This document shows, one piece after another, positions 7,572-21,054 of a stretch of DNA of 43,494 bases. Location: assembly GCA_002733355.1 (NCBI GenBank), contig NVVN01000005.1:66104-109597 (forward strand). Reading direction: 5' to 3'. Numbering within the stretch: position 1 is the stretch's first letter; each line of letters opens with the position of its first letter. The translations under genes and the position numbers were made by a program. The DNA is from Sulfurovum sp. (GTDB taxonomy: Bacteria > Campylobacterota > Campylobacteria > Campylobacterales > Sulfurovaceae). The notes under the pieces are model-generated. The model worked only from the letters and a program-made list of their open reading frames with translations. It was not told the origin of the DNA and made no database searches.

Positions 7572-10500
7572 TTACTCTATTTCTTCTTCTTCAAAATCAC
7601 TCTTTTTTGAGAACTTTAGATAGAGTATAGGAAGAATGATAAGTGTGAGTAGTGTTGAACTTACAAGACCATTTATTACCACAATAGCCAGTGGCCGTTG
7701 TATCTCGGAACCGGGTCCTGTGGCAAAAAGAAGAGGCAAGAGTCCAAAAGCTGCGATACTAGCTGTCATAAGTACGGGTCTTAGTCTTTTAATTGCTCCC
7801 TCCATTACAGCCTCTTTAATGGAAATACCATTTTTTACAAGATAGTTGAAGTAGTTGACCAACACCACCCCATTAAGCACAGCTATACCAAGCAATGCGA
7901 TGAAGCCTACGGAAGCGGGAACTGACATATATTCACCACTAACATATAATCCTATAAACCCACCAATGAGAGCCAAGGGCACGTTAATAAGCACAATAAT
8001 AGCTTGTTTAAGTGAACCAAACGAAACAAATAATAAGATAAAGACCAACAAAAGTGCTAAAGGTACAATGATAGCAAGTCTATCTGCAGCACGTTGCTGA
8101 TTTTCAAATTCTCCACCAAATGTGAGGTAGTAACCTGCGGGAAGTTTTACCTCTTTTTCTATTTTGGCTTTAGCTTCTTCAACAAAACTAACAAGATCAC
8201 GTCCTTCTACATTGGTTTGTACAATAGTTTTTCTATATCCATGTTCATGTACTATCTGCACTGGTCCTGCACTGGATACAAATTTTACAAGCGTGCTTAA
8301 AGGGACAAATTTCCCATTTTTCAGAGGATAATAAAGTTTTTTTAACTTACTTATAGAGTTTTGTAGACTTGCATCTCCTTTGACCATAAGATTGATCCGT
8401 CTCATACCTTCTTGTATAATCCCAACCTGTACACCTGTAACCATGACTTTTAAAAAGTCATTTATTTCTTGTTGATCTATGTCATGGTATGCCATAGCTT
8501 TTTTATCAAAGCTCAGTTCTAAATACTCTACACCTTCGTTGGCTTTTTTATAGACATCTGAACTACCTGGTATAATTTCTAATATATCTTTGATTGTAAC
8601 GGCTATTTTTTCAAGTTCATCATTGTCACTACCAAAAATATCTATAGCCAAGTCACCCCGTACACCTGTGAGCATCTCAGACACTCTCATCTCTATAGGT
8701 TGAGTAAACCCATACTCTATTCCTACAAACTCATCAAATACTTTACGTATTTCATTAATCACAAACTCTTTCGAAGGCTCTCTCCACTGACTTTTATCTT
8801 TGAGTACCAAGAAAGTATCTGTGTCATTAAGTCCCATTGGGTCAAGTCCTAGTTCATCACTTCCTGTCCTGGCTATAATATCTTTAATTTCAGGTACAGA
8901 TGCTATGAGTTTTTGTTGTACTTTGAGGTTAAGTGCCAAACTTTCTTTAAGTGAAATAGATGGCAACATCTCTACTCCTATAATAATACTTCCCTCATCC
9001 ATAGTTGGCATAAATGACTTTCCTGTTTTAGATGCCATAAAGAGTGAAGCAGCAAAAAGTATGAGAACAACAGTAATAGTGGTTTTCCAGTGTTTTATAC
9101 AGGTAACTAAGATAGGTCTATACCTTTTAGTAAGTACCCTGATGAGCCATGACTCTTTGTCTGGTCTTTTACTCAGGATAAATGAACTAAGCACTGGTAT
9201 CAGTGTCAGTGCTAGTACTAACGATGAAAAAAGTGCAAAAATAATACTTAGTGCCACAGGTCTAAAAAGTTTTCCTTCAAGTCCTTCAAGTGTAAGTAAT
9301 GGCATAAAAACAATGATAATAATAAGAACACCCGTGATGATAGACGGTGCCATCTCAACTGTTGCCTCATATATGATGTGCAGTTTATTTACATTTTTGT
9401 GTTTTTCATTTCCCAATTCTGCTGTAATATGTTCCACTACCACTACAGCAGAATCGACAAGTATACCTATGGCAATAGCAAGTCCACCTAAGCTCATTAG
9501 GTTAGCTGTGAGTCCGAAATATTGCATAGCTATAAAACTCATTAGAAGTGCAAAAGGCAAGATAAGTGCTACTGAAAGTGCAGAAGCTAAATTGCCAAGC
9601 ATCACAAGTAATATTATCATGATGAGAACTATGGCTTCATAAAGTGCATTTTTAACAGTACTTGTAGCAAGGTTTACGAGGTCTGAACGATCATAAAATA
9701 TATCTATTTTAGTGCCTTCTGGGAGCATAGGCTCTAGTTTAGCTAGCTCTACTTTAACCTGTGCTAGTACTTTTTCAGTATTACTCCCTTTAAGTCCAAG
9801 AACCAATCCTTGCACAGCTTCACCTTTACCATTTTTACTTACAAAGCCTGCACGTGTCAAATACCCAAATTTAACAGTAGCTATGTCTCTAATAGTGATG
9901 ATTTTATCACCACGTTTTGTTACTGGAAGCGCTTTTATTTCATCTAATGAATTGAGTTTACCCACTGACCGTACTAAGATGCTTTCTACACCTTGAGAGA
10001 CACGTCCTGCACCATCATTTTGATTGTTGTTTTCTAAACTAGTAAAGATATCCTCTAAGCTGACACCCATCGCACGCATCTTATTAAGATCAGGCATTAC
10101 TTCATAGGTTTTGACTTTCCCCCCAAGTGCATTCACTTCTGCAACACCGGATACAGAACGAATTTTAGGTGAAATGATCCAATCAAGCAATGAACGTTTC
10201 TCTTCCAAAGAAAGAGTATCTGATTCTATAGTAAACATCAAAATATCACTAAGCGGTGTAGAAATAGGGGCAAGTCCACCCTCCATATTTTTTGGAAGTT
10301 CTCCTCTAATATCAGTAAGACGTTCAGTGACTTGCTGTCTTGCCCAGTAAATATCCGTACCATCTTCAAAGTCAATGGTAATATCACAAAGCCCATACTT
10401 CGCTATACTCCGCATCATTTTTTCATGAGGGATACCTAACATTTTCATCTCTATAGGTGTAACAATACGAGATTCTATCTCCGCAGGTGTCATTCCACTT

Positions 10501-10655
10501 GACTTGATGATTATCTTAACTTGAGTAGGTGAGATATCTGGAAAAGCATCCACAGGTAATTCTTGATAGGCTTTTATACCAAACCCAAGTATAACCAAAG
10601 CAAGTAATGATAGAAATAACCTTTGTGCAAGGGCAAATCCTATAATTTTATTCAT
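7572..10655 (-). CDS. CusA/CzcA family heavy-metal efflux RND permease (system 1)
   Basis: PVDAFPDI, AIAIGILVDSAVVVVE, VLNGVVL and RLRPVLMTA motifs; ~1027 aa; ATG 10655 with SD AGGTG overlaps the adaptor stop. Confidence 0.95.
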   Translation of the reverse strand: MNKIIGFALAQRLFLSLLALVILGFGIKAYQELPVDAFPDISPTQVKIIIKSSGMTPAEIESRIVTPIEMKMLGIPHEKMMRSIAKYGLCDITIDFEDGTDIYWARQQVTERLTDIRGELPKNMEGGLAPISTPLSDILMFTIESDTLSLEEKRSLLDWIISPKIRSVSGVAEVNALGGKVKTYEVMPDLNKMRAMGVSLEDIFTSLENNNQNDGAGRVSQGVESILVRSVGKLNSLDEIKALPVTKRGDKIITIRDIATVKFGYLTRAGFVSKNGKGEAVQGLVLGLKGSNTEKVLAQVKVELAKLEPMLPEGTKIDIFYDRSDLVNLATSTVKNALYEAIVLIMIILLVMLGNLASALSVALILPFALLMSFIAMQYFGLTANLMSLGGLAIAIGILVDSAVVVVEHITAELGNEKHKNVNKLHIIYEATVEMAPSIITGVLIIIIVFMPLLTLEGLEGKLFRPVALSIIFALFSSLVLALTLIPVLSSFILSKRPDKESWLIRVLTKRYRPILVTCIKHWKTTITVVLILFAASLFMASKTGKSFMPTMDEGSIIIGVEMLPSISLKESLALNLKVQQKLIASVPEIKDIIARTGSDELGLDPMGLNDTDTFLVLKDKSQWREPSKEFVINEIRKVFDEFVGIEYGFTQPIEMRVSEMLTGVRGDLAIDIFGSDNDELEKIAVTIKDILEIIPGSSDVYKKANEGVEYLELSFDKKAMAYHDIDQQEINDFLKVMVTGVQVGIIQEGMRRINLMVKGDASLQNSISKLKKLYYPLKNGKFVPLSTLVKFVSSAGPVQIVHEHGYRKTIVQTNVEGRDLVSFVEEAKAKIEKEVKLPAGYYLTFGGEFENQQRAADRLAIIVPLALLLVFILLFVSFGSLKQAIIVLINVPLALIGGFIGLYVSGEYMSVPASVGFIALLGIAVLNGVVLVNYFNYLVKNGISIKEAVMEGAIKRLRPVLMTASIAAFGLLPLLFATGPGSEIQRPLAIVVINGLVSSTLLTLIILPILYLKFSKKSDFEEEEIE

Positions 10656-11721
10656 TACTTTCACCTAATATATTTTTTAAAATAGCCACAGAGGAACTTG
10701 CAATAGTCCCACTTATATGAGGGTTTATTTTGATGTAATAGGCTTCATTATCTTCTGCAAGAATTTCTATGGGAACATCAAGATAGCCTTTGCTATTTTT
10801 AACAAAAATAATTTGTCGCTCCCCGTCTTTTATAACAGAATTTTTACTCACTTTCATACTCTTTGAAGTTATAGAAATGTGTGCATTCTCCCGTAATCCT
10901 GCAACGATATTTACTTCTTTTGGTATAATGAATCGGACTTGTCTGGTTTGGTTTTCTCGGTTAATTACTGGAGAAATTTGTAAGATATTACTCTCAAAAG
11001 TTTTGCCATACATTTTGATGGTTACAGCTTGCCCCTCTTTAAGATTTTTTGTACGCTTAGCTTCTATGTTAGTTTCCAGCCAGAGCTTACCTTTTTTTTG
11101 TATGACAAAGAGTGCACCACCTACAGTTGTACTTTTCCCTGGTGATGCATGAAGAATAATAATTCTGCCTTCTACATCACTTTTTACATCAAGAGTAGGG
11201 CTAAGTATAAGTTGATTAAAAAGTGTATCTATCATGGTATCACTTGCTCCATAACTCTTAAGTAGTGCCTTCGAGGCGACTACTCTTATCTTGTCTGTTC
11301 TAAGTTCTGCATTGGCAGCAATACACTCCTTTTTAGGAATAATTTCTTCTTTACAAAGTATGTTTTTACGTTCAGTAAGATGAGAATGATGTTTAAACTC
11401 TATCGCTTCTGAAATGGCTTTTTGCTGTATAGCTATCCACTCTGTTCCTGTAACGTTTGCAAGTATATCACCCTTGTGTACCATTTGATACTGGGCAACA
11501 TTAAGGGTTTTTACATTGGCTTCAAAAGGAAGTGAAATAGTATGAAGTAGTGTAGGTGGGGTCACTACTTCTGCTACAAAATCACCCAAAGGAAGTTGCT
11601 CAAAGAGCTTAGGCTTTTCTAATGTAATTTGCCAATTTTTTTCTTGTTCTTCACTCAATATAATCTCTCCAGAATGAGAAAAGGTTAAGAGTATACTGAG
11701 CATCATAATATGTTTTTTCAT
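10648..11721 (-). CDS. RND periplasmic adaptor (CzcB/CusB-like), system 1
   Basis: Signal peptide, barrel-sandwich hybrid motifs (V.KGD.LA; VKSDVEGRI), located between TolC and RND pump; start ATG 11721 with SD AGGA. Confidence 0.9.
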   Translation of the reverse strand: MKKHIMMLSILLTFSHSGEIILSEEQEKNWQITLEKPKLFEQLPLGDFVAEVVTPPTLLHTISLPFEANVKTLNVAQYQMVHKGDILANVTGTEWIAIQQKAISEAIEFKHHSHLTERKNILCKEEIIPKKECIAANAELRTDKIRVVASKALLKSYGASDTMIDTLFNQLILSPTLDVKSDVEGRIIILHASPGKSTTVGGALFVIQKKGKLWLETNIEAKRTKNLKEGQAVTIKMYGKTFESNILQISPVINRENQTRQVRFIIPKEVNIVAGLRENAHISITSKSMKVSKNSVIKDGERQIIFVKNSKGYLDVPIEILAEDNEAYYIKINPHISGTIASSSVAILKNILGESNE

Positions 11722-11725
11722 TGTT

Positions 11726-12919
11726 TTAGTCCTTTTTTTCACTCAAACTGTAGAGTCTAAAGAGTGTATTGTAATATGCTTTTTTATGTGTATGAAGTTC
11801 TTGGCTTAGTGTATAAAGTTGTTGACGGTTCAGTAAGTACTCAATAACAGAGGTTTCACCTAAACTATAGCTTTTTTTGATAAGTGGTAATAACTTTTTT
11901 TTGTAATTCCTGTAGTTTTTTGAAAGACTTTGTATTATCAAGGCTTGACTGTAAAGTTGCGCTTTAAATTCTTTCAGTAAAGATGTTTTTTCTAGCATTG
12001 CTTGTTCAAATCCATATTCAATAGCAGATGCCTTATGCATAGCTGCAGCACGTGCATGTTCATTACGTTCAGAGGTGAAATTAAGTGGTAAAGATATACC
12101 TATAGTGTATCTGTCTACATCCAACTCTTTTCCGTACTGACCATTAATAGTAACCGACTCTAATGCATTGTCGTAACGTATTAAGCTCTTTTTAGCACTC
12201 TGAAGACGCTTTTCTTTGGCTTCTTTTGAAAGTGAAAAAGAATGATCAAGTTTTATTTTACTACGGATAGGATAGACATCTTTACAAGAAAGATTTGTAT
12301 TATTTCCGTATCCTATACGGCTAAGCATCAAAATCTTCTGTTTAGAAATGTCTTGCATCATTTTCATCTTTTTTACTTGAGCAAGAAGTCTGTTTTTTTC
12401 ATTTTCAAGTTGCATAAGTTCTACTTTTGAAACCTCTTGGTATTTATAAGCTTTTTCTTTCTTTTTGTAGAGTATAAGCAAGTCATTGTAGCTTTGTTTT
12501 ATATTTCTATAGTTTTGTACATCCAGACAGTGTGTATGATAGAGATTTTTTAATCCATTTCTAAAATCAATTAAAACTTTTTCACTCTCTATACGTGAAG
12601 CTTCTGTTTGAAGATTGGCTATAGTACGTTCTTGGCTTTGAATATTTCCAAGTTTTATATTCTTTGAAATGCCTATGGCATATTCATATCCATCTGTTCC
12701 AAATTTTGGTCTGGCTCTGCTACCTTCAAGATAAAGTCCAAATGGGTTATCGGATGTATCAGATAGGCTTTGAGCTCTCATCGCTAAAGCTTGTTGATCA
12801 AATGATTTTGACATTACATTATGCTCGTCAGCAGAAAGCAGTAGTTTATGAAGCGTAAGTGTTGAAGCATAGGTAAAATTAAGACTTAAACCTATTAGTA
12901 TCCAAAATAGGATTTTCAT
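11726..12919 (-). CDS. TolC/CzcC family outer-membrane efflux protein, system 1
   Basis: Signal peptide, coiled-coil repeats, IGISLPL and SYSLGETSVIEYL OMF motifs. Confidence 0.9.
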   Translation of the reverse strand: MKILFWILIGLSLNFTYASTLTLHKLLLSADEHNVMSKSFDQQALAMRAQSLSDTSDNPFGLYLEGSRARPKFGTDGYEYAIGISKNIKLGNIQSQERTIANLQTEASRIESEKVLIDFRNGLKNLYHTHCLDVQNYRNIKQSYNDLLILYKKKEKAYKYQEVSKVELMQLENEKNRLLAQVKKMKMMQDISKQKILMLSRIGYGNNTNLSCKDVYPIRSKIKLDHSFSLSKEAKEKRLQSAKKSLIRYDNALESVTINGQYGKELDVDRYTIGISLPLNFTSERNEHARAAAMHKASAIEYGFEQAMLEKTSLLKEFKAQLYSQALIIQSLSKNYRNYKKKLLPLIKKSYSLGETSVIEYLLNRQQLYTLSQELHTHKKAYYNTLFRLYSLSEKKD

Positions 12920-12922
12920 ATG

Positions 12923-12973
12923 TAACCTTTATTATAAAATTTTAAGTGTATTAGGGTGTAAAAATAAAGGTTA
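12923..12973 (-). promoter_or_regulatory. 11-bp RNA stem pairing the leader-ORF stop region with the tolC SD
   Basis: mRNA UAACCUUUAUU (12973-12963) is the exact reverse complement of AAUAAAGGUUA (12933-12923), which contains the tolC SD AAAGG. Confidence 0.75.
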
Positions 12974-13273
12974 AGCTATAGGGGGTTTGATACTTGTTTT
13001 TTGAAAAGGAGGGGTATAAAAAGTCTTTTGATGAAGTACTTTACTTTTGAGAGTAGGAGTTGAGAGAGATAAATAAGTCTTTTCTATAATTGCCATAAAA
13101 TGAAATATGTGGTGATAGTCACAAATATCGCTAGATTGTGAAAATGAAATTTGTTCTTGTACATAAGTATGTATGGAGGTACTAGTATCCATTTCTTCTG
13201 CAAGTACAGTATCATGTACTATATGAAAAAAGAGTGTAAACAATAGTAAAAACTGTAAGAGTTTCTTTTTCAA
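12971..13273 (-). CDS. CzcI/DUF2946-like small leader protein, copy 1 (100 aa)
   Basis: TTG start with SD AAAGG; hydrophobic N-terminus, DICDYHHIFHFMAI, C-terminal YTPPFQKTSIKPPIA; clear paralog of 20749-21054. Confidence 0.8.
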   Translation of the reverse strand: MKKKLLQFLLLFTLFFHIVHDTVLAEEMDTSTSIHTYVQEQISFSQSSDICDYHHIFHFMAIIEKTYLSLSTPTLKSKVLHQKTFYTPPFQKTSIKPPIA

Positions 13274-13508
13274 CACCGTACCTTTATACATTTTGTGTAG
13301 TGTATCTAAAAATAGTTAACAACTAAAAGAAATCTTTTATCTAGTAGAGTTAAATATTTATTTCTTCTTCTACTCACATATACCAACAAAATAGAATCAT
13401 TTTGGAGTTATGCTAAAATAGGATTAGTTTAGTTTTATAGTACGTGTAAAAATTTTTAACCAATATCTACAATCCAATGCTAAACATCATAGATAAGGTT
13501 TTAATAAA

Positions 13509-14405
13509 ATGGAAAATTATATAGAGTTAATTCAAAATCTCGTAAATAAAATTGAGGAAGATGTAGCATTTGACGTGAGTATAGCTTTGCTTGCAAAAGA
13601 GTTCCATCTTTCTCCTTGGCATTTTCAGCGTATGTTTAAAAGTATTGTGGGTGATTCTTTAGGTGCTTATATACGAGGTCGTAGGCTTACAAAGGCATCC
13701 AAGTTATTGCTAAATAGCCAAGATACAATTATCCAAATTGCTTTTGATGTAGGGTTTAGTTCACATGAAGCATTTACCCGATCATTTAAAGCCTATTTCT
13801 CATTTTCACCAAAAGAATTTCGGAAAGTAAAACCTAAAGTTATTTTGAATGAAAAGCCTTTATTAACACAAGATTTATTAGAGCATATTAGCCATGGCAT
13901 GAACCAAGAACCTACTATTATTACACTACCAGAACGTATACTAGTTGGGGTAAAAACACATATACCTTCGCCATTTGTTACAACGCAACATACTTGTGAT
14001 TTTGTATATAAGTCGTGGATGACATTATTTGAAAAACAAGTACATTTAAAACATAAAGTTGAGAAAAATTATTTTGGATTAACCATAAGCCCTTCAGGTA
14101 ATTTTACTGAAGAAAAATTAGACTATATCGCAGGTATACAGGTGGTCAATAAAAGTGAAATTCCTGAAGATATGGTACAGTATATTTTACCAAAAACGCA
14201 AGTAGCTATCTTTAGTATCAAAAGTGATTTAGATAGTGACTTGGTTAAGAAAACAATAGACTATATTTATGGGTATTGGTTACTAAATAGTGAATATACT
14301 CGAGGTATTGGTGATGACTACGAGTACTTTGAAGATGTAGTTAGTTTTATGGAACCCACCTTCAAATCATTTTATGTGTTACCTGTAGTAAAAAAAACTA
14401 GTTAG
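13509..14405 (+). CDS. AraC family (Rob-like) transcriptional regulator with C-terminal GyrI-like effector domain
   Basis: SPWHFQRMFK...GAYIRGRRLTKA...IAFDVGFSSHEAFTRSFK dual HTH; GyrI-like domain ending YIYGYWL...RG.GDDYEYF. Confidence 0.9.
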   Translation: MENYIELIQNLVNKIEEDVAFDVSIALLAKEFHLSPWHFQRMFKSIVGDSLGAYIRGRRLTKASKLLLNSQDTIIQIAFDVGFSSHEAFTRSFKAYFSFSPKEFRKVKPKVILNEKPLLTQDLLEHISHGMNQEPTIITLPERILVGVKTHIPSPFVTTQHTCDFVYKSWMTLFEKQVHLKHKVEKNYFGLTISPSGNFTEEKLDYIAGIQVVNKSEIPEDMVQYILPKTQVAIFSIKSDLDSDLVKKTIDYIYGYWLLNSEYTRGIGDDYEYFEDVVSFMEPTFKSFYVLPVVKKTS

Positions 14406-15102
14406 CATTTACCTTTTCCCATGCATCTTGATTAATACCTTTAAATAAAAACCAAAATACTAATGATAGTTCAGCCGGAATGGTTAGTAAAACAATAGTA
14501 TTTAATATATCTGCATAGTGTGGTAGCAAGAATAATCCCATACTATTTATAAAATATCCTGCACTTGCAAAGAAAAAAAGTGCAGCAAATATTTTTGGTA
14601 CAAAGTTTGAAGTACAGATGAGTCGTGACATAATGAATAGATGCAATGCGAAGAATAGTCCCCAAATGAGTGATCCATACCCATAGGCTTGTAGAAATAT
14701 ATAAGCTAAGGCTTCTTGTTGCTGGAGTGTGAAGTGAGTTAAGTAACTAGCTCCACTTAGTAATTCAAGTACTATAAGTTTGTTTAAAATATTTATACCG
14801 ATAAGTGCCGTCATCGCAAAACGTGCGGCAGCTGCTATTTGAGCCTGTGTTTTGTTTACAGGTTTAAATAGTTTATATAAAAGTACAGTAACGATAATCT
14901 CACTTAACAAGAGCAAGCCATCAGCTACTATCCCTAACCTAAAGGTAAAGATATCGCTTAGAATGTTGGTTGTTGTTGCATGTATATCATTTGAAACGAC
15001 TAAAGCTTCAAAGCCCACAAAAAATGCAAATCCTCCACATAATGCTATAAAAAGGTACAGTAGAGCAATGCTTTTGACAGTTGTTTGTATATTTGATTTC
15101 AT
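14398..15102 (-). CDS. DUF4386-like polytopic membrane protein
   Basis: About six TM helices; FRLGIVAD, LYKLFKPVNK, FFALHL, PAELSLVFWFLFKG pattern recalled for DUF4386. Confidence 0.7.
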   Translation of the reverse strand: MKSNIQTTVKSIALLYLFIALCGGFAFFVGFEALVVSNDIHATTTNILSDIFTFRLGIVADGLLLLSEIIVTVLLYKLFKPVNKTQAQIAAAARFAMTALIGINILNKLIVLELLSGASYLTHFTLQQQEALAYIFLQAYGYGSLIWGLFFALHLFIMSRLICTSNFVPKIFAALFFFASAGYFINSMGLFLLPHYADILNTIVLLTIPAELSLVFWFLFKGINQDAWEKVNAN

Positions 15103-15125
15103 ATATAATCCTTATATTTTATGTT

Positions 15126-15169
15126 AGTTTAGCAGGTATAAGCATTGTATATTTGATAGTTTGTGCTAT
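15126..15169 (-). promoter_or_regulatory. Mar/Sox/Rob box with class II promoter geometry upstream of the DUF4386 gene
   Basis: ATAGCACAAACTATCAAAT (15169-15151) matches AYNGCACNNWNNRYYAAAY at all specified positions; 19 nt downstream is TAAACT (15131-15126), preceded by TGC. Confidence 0.7.
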
Positions 15170-15257
15170 GTAGATAATGCCCTGTACTGTGCAATTATCA
15201 TATAATCTTGTATGGTAGCTACATAAGTGTAATGTAACTATCATTGAAATATTGAAT

Positions 15258-18200
15258 TTACTCCTTCTTGCTAAAAAACAAAACATACAGGCCAGGTAAA
15301 ACCAAGAGCGTGAGTATGGTTGAGGAGATGATACCACCAGTTACTACTACTGAAAGTGGGTATTGAATCTCAGAACCAACGCCACTTGCAAAGAGTAGAG
15401 GCAAAATACCAAAAAGCGTGGTAAAAGCTGTCATCAGTACAGGTCTAAGGCGTAGTAGCGTAGCATCTTTTACGAGAACTACGGTTTTCACTGTAGGGAA
15501 TTTTTTTCTCAACTCATCTATAAATGAAACCAAAACTATGCCATTGAGTATGGCAATGGCAAAGATGGCTATGAATCCAACAATCGCTGAGACTGAGAGG
15601 TAGATATCTGCTACCAAAAGTGCGACTATCCCCCCCATAAGTCCTAAAGGAACACCCAGTAAGATGAGGAATGCCTTTTTAAATGAGTTAAATGCTGTGT
15701 AGAGTAGTAGCAAGATAAGTAACAGTGTAATAGGAATAATCATAACAAGTGTTTCTGTAGCCTCTTGCATATTTTTAAAATCACCAGCCCACGTGAAGTA
15801 GTAACCATCGGGTATTTTTACATTTTTACGTATTTTTTCATCTGCTTCTTCTACAAAAGTAGCAATGTCACGTCCTTCAACTTCCATAGAGAGTACCATA
15901 TAACGACTCAAGTTTGCACGCTTAATGAATGCAGGACCTTGTATAGTACTTATATCACATACTTCATCTAGTGAGACCACTTTTCCTGAGCTTGAGCGTA
16001 GAATGAGAGACTTTAGTGTATTTATATCTTGTTTTGCATTTGCTAATTTAGCAACAATCCCAAAACGCTTGACGCCTTCTATCTTTTGGGTGACTGCTTC
16101 CTCACCTATGCCATAACGAATGACTTGCATTATATCTTCAACCGTCAAACCATAACGAGAGAGTGCTAAATAGTTTGGTTTGATGTTGATTTGTGCTTGT
16201 CCAAGTTGTGTTTCTACCTCTGCGTGAGAAAGTCCTTCAATGCCTTGTACTGTAGCAGAAATACCTGTGGCTATCTCAGACATAACTTTCTGATCTTCAC
16301 CATATATTTTAACGGCAAGTTCAGCTGATACACCTTCTAGCAACTCTTCTATACGCATGGCTATAGGTTGCGTAGAAATGAACTGTAGGTAGTTAAACTT
16401 CTCTTTTAGTTTTGCTGTCATCTCTTTATCTAAACGAGGAATTTCAGTAAATTCTGGGTTTAGGGTAAGGAGAACTTCCATATAATTAGCTTGAGCTGTC
16501 TCACCTTTTTCACTACGTCCTATCATGGAGAGTACAGAAAGTACTTCATCTGGGTAAGTTTTGAGTAAAAAGTTTTCTATGGCTTGGGCATTCTCTACAT
16601 TTTGTGTAAGTGCCGTCCCCGGAATGGCAATAACTCGATACATAATCGTTTCTTCATTAAGTTTAGGCATAAACTCTCTACCTTGTTGACTAAGTAATCC
16701 TGCTAAAAGAAAAAATATTAAAAAAGTCACAGCCACAAGTTTTTTAGCATGTTTCAGTGAGAAAATAAGCATAGGTGTATAAAAAGTCTTAATCGCAGTC
16801 ATGAGTGGGCTGGTCATTGTAGCCGGTTTAAGCAACATAAACGAAAGCACAGGCACAAGTAAAAGAGCTACAGCCAAAGAACCAAGCATTACAAAGACAA
16901 TGTCTAGTGCCATAGGTGTGTAGAGTTTTCCAGCAAGTCCTTCAAGACTAAGAAGTGGTATGAATACTGTAGCAATGATAAGTAGGGCAAAGAGTACAGG
17001 TTTTGCTACTTCTGCTGTAGCATCCGAGATAACTTCAGAACGTGATGCTTCAGGATTTTCCTGCAGTAATCTAAATGAGTTTTCTACCACAACGATGGTA
17101 CCATCGACTATCATTCCTATGGCTATGGCGAGTCCGGAAAGAGACATAAGGTTAGCCGATATACCATACTCTTGCATAAGTAAAAATGCGATAAGCAAAG
17201 ATACGGGTAACGAAAGTATCACGATAAATGCTGAACGTAACTCAAAGAGAAACAAAAAGAGGACAATTGCTACAAGTATAGACCCTGTAGTTAAGGCAGA
17301 GGTCATGGTACTCACTGCTTTATGCGTGATTTCTGTTCGGTCATAAATAATGTCTAAACTTACCCCTTTAGGGAGTGAAGCATTCACTAGAGGCATTTTA
17401 GCTTTAATAAGCTCGACAACCTTTGCAGCATTCGTACCTGAACGCTGGAGTACCATACCAAATACTCGTTCCTTACCATCGACTGAGACTGCACCAAAAC
17501 GTGGTGCTTTCCCCTCTTGTACTGTTGCTACGTCGTTAATCGTTACGGCTTTGGCATTTTTTGTTCTTATTACGGTATTACGTATATCATCCATATCTTT
17601 ATAGAGTCCTGCTCCACGTATAAGATACTGTTCACGGTTAAACTCTAAGTATTGGCCACCTACAGACTGATTGGATCTTTCTAAGGCTAGAATAATTTCA
17701 TTGTAAGTTACATCAACATTTTGTAGACGTTTAGAGTCTATGAGTACTTCATATTGCTTCTCATAGCCTCCCCAAGAGATGACCTCTTCTACACCATCTA
17801 CAGACTTGAGTAGCGGGGTAACTGTATACTCATGCATTTGGCGAAGCGCACTTGGAGTATATTTTTTATTTTCATCTTTGAGTGCATACCAAAGTACTTG
17901 CCCAAGACCTGTCGTGTTAGGACCCATGACAGGTACGCCCCATCCTTTAGGGATATCAACTGTATTCAGTCTTTCAGTCACTAACTGACGAAGCAGGTAT
18001 GTATCATACTCATCTTCAAAAAATATAGAGACATAGGATAATCCAAAGATAGAGTTTGAGAGTATCATTTTAACACCGGGTAGTCCAGACATCGCAGCTT
18101 CTATAGGGTAGGTGATAAGTTTTTCGATGTCTTCTGCAGAGTTACCTGAGCTCTCTGTATAGATAACCACTTGTTTAGGCGTGATATCTGGAAAAGCATC

Positions 18201-18305
18201 TACAGGTATATCTTTATAAGCTTTATAACCAAATCCGGAGATAGCTATAAATAAAGCAAGCACGAGAAATTTATACTGAATGAGTATACTAAAAAAACGA
18301 TTCAT
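15258..18305 (-). CDS. CusA/CzcA family heavy-metal efflux RND permease (system 2)
   Basis: PVDAFPDI, AIAIGMIVDGTIVVVEN, ILNGIVL and RLRPVLMTA; 1015 aa. Confidence 0.95.
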   Translation of the reverse strand: MNRFFSILIQYKFLVLALFIAISGFGYKAYKDIPVDAFPDITPKQVVIYTESSGNSAEDIEKLITYPIEAAMSGLPGVKMILSNSIFGLSYVSIFFEDEYDTYLLRQLVTERLNTVDIPKGWGVPVMGPNTTGLGQVLWYALKDENKKYTPSALRQMHEYTVTPLLKSVDGVEEVISWGGYEKQYEVLIDSKRLQNVDVTYNEIILALERSNQSVGGQYLEFNREQYLIRGAGLYKDMDDIRNTVIRTKNAKAVTINDVATVQEGKAPRFGAVSVDGKERVFGMVLQRSGTNAAKVVELIKAKMPLVNASLPKGVSLDIIYDRTEITHKAVSTMTSALTTGSILVAIVLFLFLFELRSAFIVILSLPVSLLIAFLLMQEYGISANLMSLSGLAIAIGMIVDGTIVVVENSFRLLQENPEASRSEVISDATAEVAKPVLFALLIIATVFIPLLSLEGLAGKLYTPMALDIVFVMLGSLAVALLLVPVLSFMLLKPATMTSPLMTAIKTFYTPMLIFSLKHAKKLVAVTFLIFFLLAGLLSQQGREFMPKLNEETIMYRVIAIPGTALTQNVENAQAIENFLLKTYPDEVLSVLSMIGRSEKGETAQANYMEVLLTLNPEFTEIPRLDKEMTAKLKEKFNYLQFISTQPIAMRIEELLEGVSAELAVKIYGEDQKVMSEIATGISATVQGIEGLSHAEVETQLGQAQINIKPNYLALSRYGLTVEDIMQVIRYGIGEEAVTQKIEGVKRFGIVAKLANAKQDINTLKSLILRSSSGKVVSLDEVCDISTIQGPAFIKRANLSRYMVLSMEVEGRDIATFVEEADEKIRKNVKIPDGYYFTWAGDFKNMQEATETLVMIIPITLLLILLLLYTAFNSFKKAFLILLGVPLGLMGGIVALLVADIYLSVSAIVGFIAIFAIAILNGIVLVSFIDELRKKFPTVKTVVLVKDATLLRLRPVLMTAFTTLFGILPLLFASGVGSEIQYPLSVVVTGGIISSTILTLLVLPGLYVLFFSKKE

Positions 18306-18314
18306 ATTATACTC

Positions 18315-19514
18315 CTAGTGACCATGCTCGCCAAGAGAAGACTTGAGCAGCATTGACTTCACAAAGTAAACTCCATCACTCACATACTCTTCATCTACTT
18401 TAAGACCTTTAATTGCTACATAGTCACCCACATAGGCAATAATTTCAATCACTTGTGCTTCGTAAGGTGCTTCCTCTTCTTCATGTTCATCGTGTTTACC
18501 TTCACCGTGAGTATCTTCATCTTTATCATTTCCTTTCTCGGCTTTGTGCGCATCATGGTCATGCTCATCATGTTCTGACTTTTCTTTTTCGTGATCATGA
18601 TCAGACTTTTCTTCATGGTGTCCAGCCTCTTCATGTTCTTTTTCTGTAAAAACAACCCATTCTCCCTTGTAAAGTGTGATGGCAGATTTTTTAACCATAA
18701 CCACATTTTTTGTAGGAGCAAGAGAAATATCTATCTCTGTAAATGCACCTAAAAGAAGATTTGATGGACTATTTTCTATTTGAAAAAGTACCTTAGCACG
18801 CTGTGTCTCAGGGTCAATGTTTGGTAAAAGTTGCATAAAAGAGGCATCATAACTTTTACCTAAAAGATTGATATAACCTTTTGTATCTTTAGATACATGC
18901 AATGCATGCTTGGTTGAGAGATACGCTGTAGCATAGTAAGTATTTTGATTTACCAATGTAACTAAAGGTGTCTGGGCACCTACATTTGTATGCAATGGTG
19001 CAAGGATGTTACCTACAGTTCCATCTGCATGAGCATAGAGTATAAATTGATCTGTTGCGGCTGTAAGTGATTTTGGCTTTAAGCCTAAAGAGTTCAACTG
19101 TGAAGCCAAAGTATTTAGTTGACTACGTATATTTTCTAAAGCAATAATGGCATTACTCACATCATTTTGTGAAGCTATACCTTTTTTATGTAAAGTCTTT
19201 GCTGTATTTTTCTGTGTTTTGGCAGCTTTTAGTTGTTTAACCAGTGCTAAATATTCTGCAGTCATTTTTGAAAGTTCTATGGACTCTATGAGTACAACTT
19301 TATCATCTTTAGAAACATGTTGTCCAGGTTTTACATAATAGGCTTCCAAATGTCCAGAGAGACGTGAAACAATGGTTTGTTTTTGGTCTGAGAGTTGTGT
19401 AATTTGAGCGTTTGTTTTGATAATCTTACCTAATGGTTTAAGTTCTGCATGTTCCATCTTTATAGCAGAAGAGAAGCCCAAAAGGGGTAAAAGTAAAAGT
19501 AAATATTTAGTCAT
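18315..19514 (-). CDS. RND periplasmic adaptor with a His/acid-rich insert, system 2
   Basis: Signal peptide, SRLSGHLEAYYVKPGQHV, IDPETQRAKV; ~60-aa His/Glu/Asp/Lys insert near the C-terminus; ends GEHGH. Confidence 0.92.
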   Translation of the reverse strand: MTKYLLLLLPLLGFSSAIKMEHAELKPLGKIIKTNAQITQLSDQKQTIVSRLSGHLEAYYVKPGQHVSKDDKVVLIESIELSKMTAEYLALVKQLKAAKTQKNTAKTLHKKGIASQNDVSNAIIALENIRSQLNTLASQLNSLGLKPKSLTAATDQFILYAHADGTVGNILAPLHTNVGAQTPLVTLVNQNTYYATAYLSTKHALHVSKDTKGYINLLGKSYDASFMQLLPNIDPETQRAKVLFQIENSPSNLLLGAFTEIDISLAPTKNVVMVKKSAITLYKGEWVVFTEKEHEEAGHHEEKSDHDHEKEKSEHDEHDHDAHKAEKGNDKDEDTHGEGKHDEHEEEEAPYEAQVIEIIAYVGDYVAIKGLKVDEEYVSDGVYFVKSMLLKSSLGEHGH

Positions 19515-20682
19515 TGTAGTCTCCTTGAATGAAACGTAATTCTATTTTTTGATTGTTAATCATTTTTTGTGTTTGTAGCAATGTTTTTCGTGTTTGTATG
19601 AGTTTATTTTTAGTATTCATCATCACAAATATCGAACCCTGTGCTATTCTGTAGCCCTCTTGAAGTAAATCATTAAGTAATTGCTGCTCTTTTTTAAGAG
19701 TTTTGAGGCTGTAGTATTGATTGTTTAGCTCTTTAAGAGATACTTTTATCATCTGTTTTTGTGTATAAAGATCTATAGACAATTGTTCATTATCAAGTAA
19801 GAGCTGTTGTTTTTGTAATTTTGCCAACATCTTCTCTTCTGATTTGTCATTAAAAATAGGAAGAGGGATTGAAACACCCAGTCTGATAATAGACTGATCT
19901 GGCTCATTCTCTATACTGCTATACACACTATAACTGTTGATACTGCTCTCATTCATACGAATTTGACTATCCAAAATTTTTGCTTTGGCTGCAAGTATCT
20001 GTTGTTTTGAATTACTTTTACTACTACTTTTAACCATAGAAGAGACAGGATAGATAAAACTTTTTACTAAACTAACTTTTTTTGTCAATCCTGCAATGGC
20101 TAAAAGTTGATAATATAAACTGTTCATTTGTTGTTTTGTTGTAAACATTTGTGACTTAAGTGAGATGGTGTTCGTTTTCGCCTGCAAATAAGATATCTTG
20201 TTTTCAGAGCCACTTTCATAACGTTCTTCTACTATACTTGTAACTTTGGTAGAGAGTTTATATTCCTCTTTTAAAAGTAAAAGTAACTTACTTTGATACA
20301 CATATTCAGTATAAAGTACTTCAAGTGTTCGTATATATCCTGCTTTTCCATCTTTTACGTAAGCTTGCTGAAGTAATGTATTTGCATTTGCCTGATCTTC
20401 CAATCCACCATAGTAGTTAAATGTACGTATATTTTGAGTAATACTGGCAGCATACTGAAAACTTGAATTTAAAGTATCTGGGTTAAAACGCGATGCTTCA
20501 AGCCCTAGCATGGGGTTTTTTGAGCGTAGAAGTATTTTGTTTTTTTCTTGTATTGTTTGTATCGAAAGTGCTTGACTTTGAAGTACTTTCGCATTTTTTT
20601 GTGTATATTTTTTGAACTGTTCATAACTCATTCCAAAAGCAGTTATAGATAAGCCCAAAAAAAATATAAATATTTTTTTCAT
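19507..20682 (-). CDS. TolC/CzcC family outer-membrane efflux protein, system 2
   Basis: Signal peptide, ERYESGSENKISYLQAK and LGVSIPLPIF OMF motifs. Confidence 0.9.
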   Translation of the reverse strand: MKKIFIFFLGLSITAFGMSYEQFKKYTQKNAKVLQSQALSIQTIQEKNKILLRSKNPMLGLEASRFNPDTLNSSFQYAASITQNIRTFNYYGGLEDQANANTLLQQAYVKDGKAGYIRTLEVLYTEYVYQSKLLLLLKEEYKLSTKVTSIVEERYESGSENKISYLQAKTNTISLKSQMFTTKQQMNSLYYQLLAIAGLTKKVSLVKSFIYPVSSMVKSSSKSNSKQQILAAKAKILDSQIRMNESSINSYSVYSSIENEPDQSIIRLGVSIPLPIFNDKSEEKMLAKLQKQQLLLDNEQLSIDLYTQKQMIKVSLKELNNQYYSLKTLKKEQQLLNDLLQEGYRIAQGSIFVMMNTKNKLIQTRKTLLQTQKMINNQKIELRFIQGDYND

Positions 20683-20748
20683 ACGGATTCCTGTAATTTA
20701 ATATTGTAGATTTGTGCTCTATAGAGAGCTAGGGTGTGGTGACGCGTT

Positions 20749-21054
20749 TTAAGCTATAGGGGGTTTAATGTTTGTCTCTTGAAATGGAGGGGTATAACAT
20801 ACTACTTTATGTATAAGTTTTGTTTTACTCATTAATCTATCTGCGCTAAGTAAAGGTGTATCTAAGATTGCCATAAAATGGAAGAAATGATGTATATCAC
20901 ATAAATCACCACACTCAGCTGTATTACTTTGTTCTAATACATATTCATGTACAGATTCATGATGGCACTCATCTCCTACAGCGATGATAGAAGCATGAGC
21001 AATATTAAAAAAAAGTGCACATAACAATATAAAGTATATCAAACCTTTTTTCAA
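20749..21054 (-). CDS. CzcI/DUF2946-like small leader protein, copy 2 (101 aa)
   Basis: TTG start, SD AAAGG; hydrophobic N-terminus, CHHESVH, CGDLCDIHHFFHFMAI, C-terminal YTPPFQETNIKPPIA. Confidence 0.8.
   Translation of the reverse strand: MKKGLIYFILLCALFFNIAHASIIAVGDECHHESVHEYVLEQSNTAECGDLCDIHHFFHFMAILDTPLLSADRLMSKTKLIHKVVCYTPPFQETNIKPPIA

Follow-up and report, generated by a model that had tools for sequence, protein, structure and literature searches.

Two small ORFs head the heavy-metal efflux operons of a Sulfurovum contig

We analysed a stretch of 43,494 nucleotides (nt) from Sulfurovum sp. (Campylobacterota; GenBank assembly GCA_002733355.1, contig NVVN01000005.1, positions 66,104 to 109,597), here called the window, in which two operons for heavy-metal efflux each begin with an open reading frame (ORF) of about 100 codons. 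A model that saw only the letters of this DNA (the sequence-only reading) had proposed that both ORFs encode metal-sensing leader peptides whose translation controls the pump genes behind them. We number the ORFs leader 1 (L1, heading operon 1) and leader 2 (L2, heading operon 2). Both are present where that reading had placed them and are clean on the minus strand (Table 1); reading the same coordinates on the plus strand was rejected, with all frames full of stops. Each leader is followed by genes for an outer-membrane factor (OEP), a membrane-fusion protein (MFP) and a CusA/CzcA-family pump of the resistance-nodulation-division (RND) type, in this order, after a leader-to-OEP spacer of 51 nt in operon 1 and 66 nt in operon 2.

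The two leaders share a hydrophobic N-terminus, the central motif D(I/L)CDxHHxFHFMAI and the tail YTPPFQxTxIKPPIA. The spacing noticed earlier is correct: Cys51 and Pro98 of L1, and Cys52 and Pro99 of L2, are 47 residues apart. L2 has an additional N-terminal ligand cluster, EC30HHESVH36EY, on the 5' side of the central motif. With 47.5% identity and an E value of 1e-32 (BLASTP), far beyond chance, the leaders are paralogs, and the similarity extends to the DNA, the final 51 nt being 86% identical, in agreement with the conservation first seen over the last ~50 nt. The pump genes have diverged as strongly as had been claimed, with 22% identity over 249 amino acids (aa) between the OEPs (E 0.016), 37% between the RND proteins and no significant alignment between the MFPs. 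The leaders are more conserved between the operons than any of the pump parts, and, judged from their sequences, the pump sets of operons 1 and 2 are old paralogs.

Both leaders start at TTG. In homologs the aligned start codon was TTG in 40 of 66 cases, ATG in 12 and GTG in 8, and it always lay 7-9 nt after an AAAGG-like site. The family favours TTG, a weak start codon, unusually strongly (13271-13273 and 21052-21054 in the window). L1 has an alternative in-frame ATG at 13291, which lacks a ribosome-binding site (RBS).

Table 1. Features of the two leader-headed operons and their surroundings in the window
Feature	Position	Strand	Basis or remark
Leader 1 (L1), 100 aa	12971..13273	-	TTG start, AAAGG 7-8 nt 5'
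L1 Sec-type N-terminus: KKK, hydrophobic core, ...HIVH20DTVLA	13199..13273	-	Sequence; AlphaFold helix 2-27
L1 central metal-ligand motif DIC51DYH54H55IFH58FMAI	13088..13129	-	dN/dS 0.07 for the segment
L1 C-terminal motif YTPPFQKTSIKPPIA	12974..13018	-	K96-P97-P98 at 12980-12988; two codons, then stop
5' arm UAACCUUUAUU of 11-bp helix, beginning at first base of L1 stop codon	12963..12973	-	-9.2 kcal/mol, z -2.2; duplex z -4.1
3' arm AAUAAAGGUUA, holding the Shine-Dalgarno sequence of the tolC-like gene (ATG 12919)	12923..12933	-	Folding and duplex
Outer-membrane factor (OEP/TolC-like), operon 1	11726..12919	-	PF02321; ATG at 12919
Membrane-fusion protein, operon 1	10648..11742	-	HlyD_D23; CzcB/NccB family
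CusA/CzcA-family heavy-metal RND pump, operon 1	7572..10664	-	TIGR00914, 999 bits
Leader 2 (L2), 101 aa	20749..21054	-	TTG start, AAAGG 7-8 nt 5'
L2 central motif DLC52DIH55H56FFH59FMAI	20866..20907	-	Alignment
L2 C-terminal motif YTPPFQETNIKPPIA	20752..20796	-	K97-P98-P99 at 20758-20766
Conserved element 9 nt after L2 stop, ACCACACCCUAGCUCUCU, with possible 5-bp hairpin	20716..20740	-	Inside C-rich, G-poor tract
Outer-membrane factor, operon 2	19507..20682	-	Domain match
Membrane-fusion protein, operon 2, with His/Asp/Glu-rich insert	18315..19514	-	Domain match and sequence
CusA/CzcA-family RND pump, operon 2, transmembrane segment 4 motif AIGMIVDGTIVVVEN	15258..18305	-	Family match
ZitB-like metal exporter of the cation diffusion facilitator (CDF) family, directly upstream of L2	21110..22015	-	Family match
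Sigma-70-like promoter match TAGACG-18-TATAAT, upstream of L2	21090..21119	-	Consensus match alone
AraC/Rob-like regulator (HTH_18 and GyrI-like), divergent from operon 1	13509..14405	+	Family match

The leaders belong to an unannotated family that precedes OEP-MFP-RND genes

A profile search found 193 relatives, all of about 100 aa and either unnamed or labelled 'hypothetical'; those with a source organism name are from Epsilonproteobacteria. An exhaustive HMMER scan of 1.84 billion representatives gave 192 clusters at 50% identity, and nearly all cluster representatives are again about 100 aa long. A second database search with a broad profile of 138 sequences returned no outgroup and no protein with a Pfam domain, no relative carries a precomputed Pfam domain, and searches of L1 and L2 against Pfam and NCBIfam gave sub-threshold noise only.

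We fetched 102 loci from scans of genome and metagenome contigs, with organism names available from the genome scan only; 89 unique loci were used for the analysis of spacing, tail and spacer, and 78 unique loci for the duplex test described below. The loci from the genome scan are mostly from Sulfurovum, with others from Sulfurimonas, Hydrogenimonas and further Campylobacterales. The nearest relative, locus L001 from a metagenome-assembled genome (MAG) of Sulfurovum, has operon 1 pump proteins that are 85-95% identical to those of the window. The leader precedes OEP, MFP and RND genes in essentially every one of the 102 loci with enough sequence, the exceptions being two loci in which the OEP gene is missing, and the gene order is unchanged in very distant family members. 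In most of the 89 loci the spacer between leader and OEP gene is 50-90 nt long. The check that the sequence-only reading had proposed, a family-wide hidden Markov model search scored for the C-terminus, the motif spacing and the neighbourhood, turned out in its favour: the family has a conserved [KR]PP tail, a spacing of 47 residues and a consistent linkage to OEP-MFP-RND genes.

Ligand motifs, spacing and tail are under selection

Conservation in 138 divergent members is complete or nearly complete (L2 numbering) at His20, at His55 and His59, which form HxxFH, and at the prolines Pro98 and Pro99. The first of these closes the N-terminal hydrophobic core (13214-13216 and 20995-20997 in the window) and is invariant in all 138. 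By inspection, the N-terminus has the layout of a signal peptide: KKK forms the n-region, 12-15 residues make up the hydrophobic core, and cleavage is possible between AHA and S or between VLA and E. The histidine is atypical for such a segment. A role of His20 as a metal ligand is possible, as is retention of the segment as a membrane anchor without cleavage.

The C-terminus is nearly fixed. The last six residues are IKPPIA in 102 of 120 close relatives, and exactly two residues follow the Pro-Pro pair in all 120 of these, in 87 of the 89 loci and in 113 of 136 divergent representatives. In the latter set the residue before the pair is Lys in 98 and Arg in 31 sequences, and the residue after it is Ile in 107. 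A second Pro-Pro (YTPPF) lies 12-13 residues from the stop in 74-79% of loci. The distance from the central Cys to the last Pro is 47 residues in 120/120 proteins and in 86 of the 89 unique loci, the other three having 46. The His of the FH pair is 40 residues from the last Pro in 113 of the 136 divergent representatives and 38-41 residues in 131. The geometry suggested by the earlier reading, in which the ligand motif leaves the ribosome or translocon while the Pro-Pro pair is decoded, fits these numbers, with HxxFH 40 and Cys 47 residues from the last Pro, approximately the length of the exit tunnel.

The ratio of nonsynonymous to synonymous substitution rates (dN/dS; 174 pairs) was 0.30 for the leader overall and differed by segment: 0.12 for the signal, 0.17 for the N-terminal motif, 0.07 for the central motif, 0.62 for the linker and 0.26 for the last 16 codons. 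The linker of about 22 residues between the motifs is therefore the fastest-evolving part of the leader and nearly neutral. Since its length is nearly constant all the same, we regard it as a spacer that is constrained in length but not in sequence.

In the tail, Pro-4 and Pro-3 (counted from the C-terminus) are 100% conserved and Ile-2 is 99% conserved, with CCT, CCC, CCA and CCG and with ATA, ATC and ATT all in use; the Lys is replaced by Arg only, encoded by AGA or CGC. As synonymous codons vary at invariant residues, selection acts on the peptide of the tail and not on its nucleotides. There is also a secondary nucleotide signal. The synonymous rate (dS) is 0.74 in the last 16 codons and 1.1-1.6 elsewhere, and Ile-2 is encoded by ATA in 79% of loci, compared with ~19% at other Ile positions of the leaders and 42% in the genes of the window. 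A rare-codon explanation was ruled out by this last number, ATA being a common Ile codon in the window that is still enriched at Ile-2. The codon data suggest some nucleotide-level constraint (CCU AUA G) on top of that on the peptide, located in the window at 12974-12979 in L1 and 20752-20757 in L2.

The AlphaFold model, built on an alignment of 38 sequences, was poor (mean predicted local distance difference test score, pLDDT, 62.8; predicted template-modelling score, pTM, 0.29), too poor for a fold search. It contains two helices, one at residues 2-27 and one at residues 34-68, and leaves residues 69-100 unstructured, which would have the tail behave as a short linear motif and not as part of a fold.

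The two operons differ downstream of the leader stop codon

In operon 1 (type A) the L1 stop codon itself forms the start of an 11-bp helix that hides the RBS of the tolC-like gene (Table 1). Of the 78 unique loci, 18 have a duplex between stop region and RBS with z<-2, where about 2 are expected from composition-preserving shuffles. These 18 include L1-type loci and distant clades (L030, L032, L035, L101, L102 and L106), and L040 retains the duplex through changes on both sides (AGGCUA/UAGCCU). The 5' arm would be unwound by a ribosome whose A site holds the stop codon; a pause at K-P-P would bring the ribosome only as far as the first bases of that arm.

The 52 loci of operon 2 and its clade (type B) have, at a fixed 8-12 nt after the stop, the primary-sequence element ACCACACCCUAGUUCUCU (20740-20723 in the window). 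Each locus has a single copy, always behind a leader stop codon, and we rejected the idea that it is a general operator. An RBS-hiding helix was sought in these loci and rejected as well: the duplex between stop region and RBS has a z of ~0-1, and the best partners of the RBS were weak and inconsistent. In about a third of the loci the RBS pairs best with the codons for Pro-Pro-Ile (CUCCUAU), at ~-6.6 kcal/mol. A conserved structure in the type B spacers was rejected too, as RNAalifold found 0 pairs. The possible 5-bp hairpin (arms GCUCU, 20729-20725, and AGAGC, 20720-20716) is paired in 83% of cases, but two-sided changes are limited to 2 pairs, and its covariation score is reached by 35 of 500 shuffles. 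A 17-bp duplex of -21 kcal/mol is possible in L2, between the post-stop element (20716-20748) and the A-E-C-G-D codons (20899-20925). This pairing was discarded as a conserved structure, with cognate pairs at -10.0 and non-cognate pairs at -10.4 kcal/mol and 4779 of 5000 permutations as good; the duplex is probably a by-product of the conserved UGUGGUGA codons.

C and G account for a mean of 26% and 6% of type B spacers (32% and 8% of their first 40 nt), and for ~22% and 15% of the flanking coding sequence. Both window leaders show such an excess of C over G, a C>G bubble, at their 3' end, at 20790-20715 in operon 2 (C 0.27-0.37, G 0.08-0.10) and at 13050-12960 in operon 1 (C 0.22-0.30, G 0.02-0.07). 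An internal promoter or intrinsic terminator between leader and tolC-like gene was rejected, neither spacer having a sigma-70-like promoter or a terminator-like site, and a search of both spacers against Rfam gave no match.

Neighbouring genes and related ORFs

The sequence-only reading had stated that no two-component, MerR or ArsR regulator lies near either operon. This holds for ~8 kb around them, except that a regulator of another type, the AraC/Rob-like gene, adjoins operon 1. That gene (plus strand) and a DUF4386 gene (minus strand) form a block (13509-15102) that separates the two RND operons. In the Sulfurovum MAG L001 the AraC/Rob-like gene is absent at this position, and operon 2 runs directly into leader 1 and operon 1; the block is therefore probably an insertion unrelated to the pumps. 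The upstream context of homolog loci is variable, a few having ArsR-like or response-regulator plus kinase-like genes and most having none, as judged from N-terminal sequences.

At residues ~300-355 the operon 2 MFP has an insert of some 55 residues with a very high content of His, Asp and Glu (HEEAGHHEEKSDHDHEKEKSEHDEHDHDAH...), for which the operon 1 MFP has no counterpart. The composition of this adaptor insert points to binding of divalent metal, and together with the ZitB-like neighbour it suggests that operon 2 handles divalent cations.

Several other small ORFs were seen in the homolog loci. In about 12 of them (L023, L026, L030, L032, L035, L038, L040, L047, L053, L063, L065 and L106) an extra signal-bearing ORF of 107-111 aa, with motifs that include ..H..LHTY or LLVDS, lies between leader and OEP gene, and its start is as far from the leader stop as that of the OEP gene in other loci; the window has none. 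Protein P0194 (198 aa) has leader-like residues 1-64 (signal plus CGDLCEVHHFFH) joined to a permease-like C-terminal part, which could be a real fusion or a frameshift. Similar permease genes (MEITYFFEALWQLS...) lie directly upstream of the leader in L002, L009, L012 and L031. Another small signal-bearing, His-rich ORF of 96 aa (L019:2347-2637, ...GATHIHHDALESHANCKV...) is found a few kb upstream of the leader; it precedes putative outer-membrane and ZnuA/ZnuB-type genes, judged by their N-termini only, and may be another leader-type ORF, for an uptake system.

Discussion

We consider it likely, while leaving considerable room for doubt, that L1 and L2 are cis-acting, co-translationally exported, metal-sensing leaders of the CutF/CruR design that belong to a separate, unannotated family of Campylobacterota. 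We favour this interpretation because the family combines a putative export signal, strongly selected ligand motifs, a neutral spacer of fixed length, a tail selected as a peptide and an RNA element at or after the stop codon, and because the leaders are better conserved than the pumps. This set of features would be expected of a co-translational sensor in contact with ribosome and translocon, and it is hard to explain for an ordinary small periplasmic protein. In kind, the proposal of the sequence-only reading was largely correct.

In the mechanism that we propose, the Sec-type N-terminus would bring the nascent chain to the translocon. With the ribosome at K-P-P, a distance of 40-47 residues would separate the HxxFH/Cys motif from the peptidyl-transferase centre and place the motif where the tunnel ends or the translocon begins, and the N-terminal His/Cys cluster would by then be in the periplasm. 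Metal binding would alter the pull on the chain and change the dwell of the ribosome on the last five codons (KPPIA-stop), and the dwell time would set the expression of the pump genes. The two operons probably read the leader differently, as only operon 1 has an RBS-hiding helix. There, a ribosome over the stop codon would melt the 11-bp helix and free the tolC RBS. In operon 2, more tentatively, a lingering ribosome might cover the C-rich, G-poor tract, a candidate entry site for Rho or RNase, as in CruR and TnaC; with no RBS-hiding helix, no consensus structure and weak covariation of the hairpin, this second read-out is a conjecture. We observed the family with its pattern of selection, constant spacing and synteny, as well as the helix and the C>G bubble; pausing at Pro-Pro, binding of metal, a role for Sec, the sign of regulation and any part played by Rho are inferred.

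A number of observations weigh against the leader interpretation. Only ~2.8% of PPX motifs cause pausing in E. coli even without elongation factor P (EF-P) (PMC4140641), and KPPI is not a documented strong staller. The read-out is affected by the missing RBS-hiding helix, the absence of a conserved spacer structure and the few two-sided changes in the hairpin of type B loci. The sequencing runs found to carry the locus are DNA metagenomes only, with no RNA runs among them. Some homolog loci have ArsR or two-component genes nearby. The family has no significant sequence link to DUF2946, SilD or CzcI, and as the latter two differ from CutF in their spacing, the match of our leaders to CutF in this respect could be a coincidence. 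Finally, an invariant His20 is odd for a signal that is cleaved, and a mature, membrane-anchored metal binder is possible.

This last point leads to the strongest competing explanation, that the ORFs encode a mature periplasmic or membrane-anchored metal-binding accessory of the pump, a chaperone or regulator as proposed for CzcI or CusF, with [KR]PPIx as a C-terminal docking, sorting or protease tag, no regulatory pausing and ordinary translational coupling to tolC. The invariance of His20, His55 and His59 in 138 members resembles the three-His site of a finished protein, and cleavage of the signal at AHA would remove the first of these residues. Purifying selection along most of the protein also favours an accessory, a binding site at the carboxyl end would likewise need its motif at the very C-terminus, and the order of motifs, CxHE just after the signal and then CG..C..H, is like that of CzcI. 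On the other hand, a near-neutral linker of near-constant length is unusual for a disordered tether of a mature protein, no confident fold was predicted and the C-terminal third is unstructured in the AlphaFold model, and between the paralogs the leaders resemble each other far more closely than do their would-be binding partners in the pump. Nor would an accessory account for a stop codon built into an RBS-hiding helix in one clade, for the C>G bubble at the 3' end or for the predominance of TTG starts. We regard a purely accessory function as rather unlikely. Leader and accessory roles are not mutually exclusive.

It is very improbable that the last ~50 nt are conserved for the sake of an element in the RNA or DNA (an operator, an internal tolC promoter or an anti-Shine-Dalgarno sequence, for example) and that the peptide tail is incidental. 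The 86% identity of the last 51 nt of L1 and L2, the reduced dS in the last 16 codons, the excess of ATA at Ile-2 and the conserved sequence after the stop codon would all suit such an element. However, all four Pro codons and all three Ile codons are used for residues with 99-100% invariance, Lys is exchanged for Arg only, and by way of two different codons, and the frame and the position of the stop are kept in 87 of 89 loci; moreover, the spacers lack promoter-like or terminator-like sites and Rfam matches, and the conserved post-stop motif lies outside the ORF. That the ORFs are chance or decayed frames without function, for which only the missing annotation and Pfam match could be cited, is refuted by the comparative data, namely the paralog E value of 1e-32, the 192 clusters, the low dN/dS (above all that of the central motif), the conserved upstream RBS and the conserved synteny.

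Returning to the leader interpretation, we put forward, as a tentative extension that we hold to be less probable than the interpretation itself, that the peptide is a transmembrane 'molecular ruler'. The spacer of 40/47 residues and the two-codon tail would hold the His/Cys site at the ribosome-translocon junction during decoding of K-P-P, so that divalent metal in the periplasm would control RND synthesis without a transcription factor, with one sensor and two outputs. The 47+2 arrangement shared with CutF would then reflect a constraint of the ribosome-SecYEG complex and not common descent.

To our knowledge, the descriptions of co-translational leaders that sense periplasmic metal date from 2022-2025 only and concern the leaders of a copper oxidase (CutF) and of a TonB-dependent transporter (CruR), and we know of no RND-linked leader of the CutF/CruR kind that has been tested so far. 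The kind of system is thus already published; what is new is the family, which is well delimited and unannotated, comes from a phylum new to this kind of system and has a tail motif of its own, His-based ligands, an unusually strict ruler and two downstream architectures. The family is a clean natural example, with near-invariant spacing, a six-residue tail selected as a peptide, a neutral spacer and two diverged copies in one genome that have different downstream designs. It fills an annotation gap of ~190 clusters of 'hypothetical proteins' in vent and subsurface Campylobacterota and, if the interpretation is true, explains how metal pumps are controlled where no dedicated regulator is linked. 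The 47+2 arrangement in common with CutF raises the question of whether the ribosome-translocon complex fixes the sensing distance.

Comparison with known systems

The closest parallel is CutF of Rhodobacter capsulatus, a Sec-exported protein of 118 aa whose gene opens the cutFOG operon. Induction of CutO by copper requires, in cis, both the C69xxH72C73 motif of CutF and its tail P109EPEGPPPRL118; a stem-loop that covers the cutO RBS is proposed to melt when the ribosome stalls at PPP, and loss of EF-P mimics copper (PMC8456105, PMC9973294, bioRxiv 10.1101/2025.02.05.636593). Like L1 and L2, CutF is a product of ~100-120 aa from the first gene of a metal-detoxification operon; it has a Sec signal, where the leaders have a Sec-type N-terminus, and a central C-x-x-H-(C/H) motif (C69xxH72C73, compared with C51DxH54H55 in L1). 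According to the published coordinates its first Cys and last Pro are 116-69 = 47 residues apart and two residues follow, and its intergenic RBS-hiding helix has a counterpart in operon 1, while operon 2 has no helix. CutF differs from the leaders in its tail (PPP-R-L instead of K-P-P-I-A), in the use of Cys pairs where the leaders have mainly His ligands (the invariant His20, His55 and His59), in its target, a multicopper oxidase and not an OEP-MFP-RND pump, and in its phylum. There is no detectable sequence homology, and stalling has been shown experimentally for CutF only.

A survey by length, signal peptide, C-terminal Pro-Pro and close downstream gene listed 5,334 CutF-like proteins, among which OEP genes of RND systems were the commonest neighbour and modes of action probably differ; the phyla were mainly Pseudomonadota and Bacteroidota, Campylobacterota being unmentioned and no such names occurring in the supplement text (PMC9973294). 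By the rules of that survey L1 and L2 are CutF-like in length, being 100 and 101 aa long where the limit is 150 aa, in having Pro-Pro among their last 15 residues, and in their downstream neighbour. The survey asks for a same-strand gene less than 1000 nt away, typically one of metal homeostasis, and here an OEP gene follows at 51 and 66 nt. The sequence-only reading had compared the leaders to DUF2946-type proteins as well as to CutF. The likeness to CutF in length, Pro-Pro and next gene stands; no significant sequence link to DUF2946, SilD or CzcI was found.

CruR (BP2923 of Bordetella pertussis, DUF2946) has CxxC and RAPP motifs and acts through Rho-dependent termination in a C>G bubble that extends from the 3' part of the ORF into the spacer (PMC9426467). 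It shares with the leaders the upstream ORF, the metal motif, a conserved C-terminal Pro motif and a C>G bubble at the same place, which is a compositional signature only in our loci, whereas termination by Rho has been demonstrated at CruR. In CruR, unlike here, the motifs are CxxC and RAPP, the signal is of the lipoprotein type and dispensable, the spacer is 162 nt long, and copper relieves arrest and switches off an uptake gene (PMC9426467). The DUF2946 model does not fit the family: none of 138 diverse members matches PF11162 at E<=1, and neither do L1 and L2, CzcI as a positive control giving a marginal match (E 0.026). The CxxC and the C-terminal RAPP of DUF2946 are absent from the family, where CGDLCDxHH (a CxxxC with HH behind it) and [KR]PPIx are found instead.

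CzcI of Cupriavidus metallidurans pMOL30 occupies the same slot, 75 nt before the OEP gene of the Co/Zn/Cd RND operon czcCBA. It has a signal peptide, comparable to the Sec-type N-terminus here, followed by a C-x-H-E cluster (YCQHE in CzcI, DCHHE here) and a central CG..C..H (CGVCH and CGDLCDxHH, respectively). It differs at the C-terminus, ...NARAPDRPQWQRLA, which has RAPD (a degenerate RAPP), no Pro-Pro, a tail of 9 residues and a Cys-to-Pro distance of 43, and in that the czc operon also has the CzcRS two-component system. Alignment of the family with CzcI by hhalign gave an E value of 0.063 and a probability of 0.9%, with only EDDCHHESV and AARYCQHEKA aligned. The czcI gene is at L111:15177-15524, where its record label, 'CDF family transporter', is a mis-annotation.

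SilD/CusD of C. metallidurans (silCBA/cusCBA), placed among the CutF-like proteins (PMC9973294), is a small signal-bearing ORF that likewise precedes an OEP gene, at 72 nt, with an L-C-x-x-H-C motif (LCQAHCH) and a poly-Pro stretch near the C-terminus. The stretch is PRPPPRP followed by a tail of 12 residues, unlike that of the leaders, and its Cys is 54 residues from the last Pro of PPP. Alignment of the family with SilD by hhalign gave an E value of 0.49 with only the metal motifs aligned, and SilD has no DUF2946 match at E<=1; its gene is at L110:20024-20419 on pMOL30. With 54+12 in SilD and 43+9 in CzcI, we rejected 47+2 as a universal ruler of CutF-like proteins. The plasmid RND neighbourhood of Cupriavidus oxalaticus contained no leader for comparison.

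The leaders also show all the features used in a published search for arrest peptides (bioRxiv 10.1101/2023.09.02.556018), with ~75 residues between signal and Pro-Pro. SecM, VemP, MifM, ApdA/ApdP and the upstream ORFs of RAPP type resemble them in having a basic residue and Pro-Pro at the arrest site (bioRxiv 10.1101/2023.09.02.556018). However, the arrest peptides that monitor Sec sense export capacity and control sec or yidC genes (bioRxiv 10.1101/2023.09.02.556018), and they have R-A-P-P in place of [KR]PP, whereas the ligand motifs and RND targets of the Campylobacterota leaders point to the sensing of metal.

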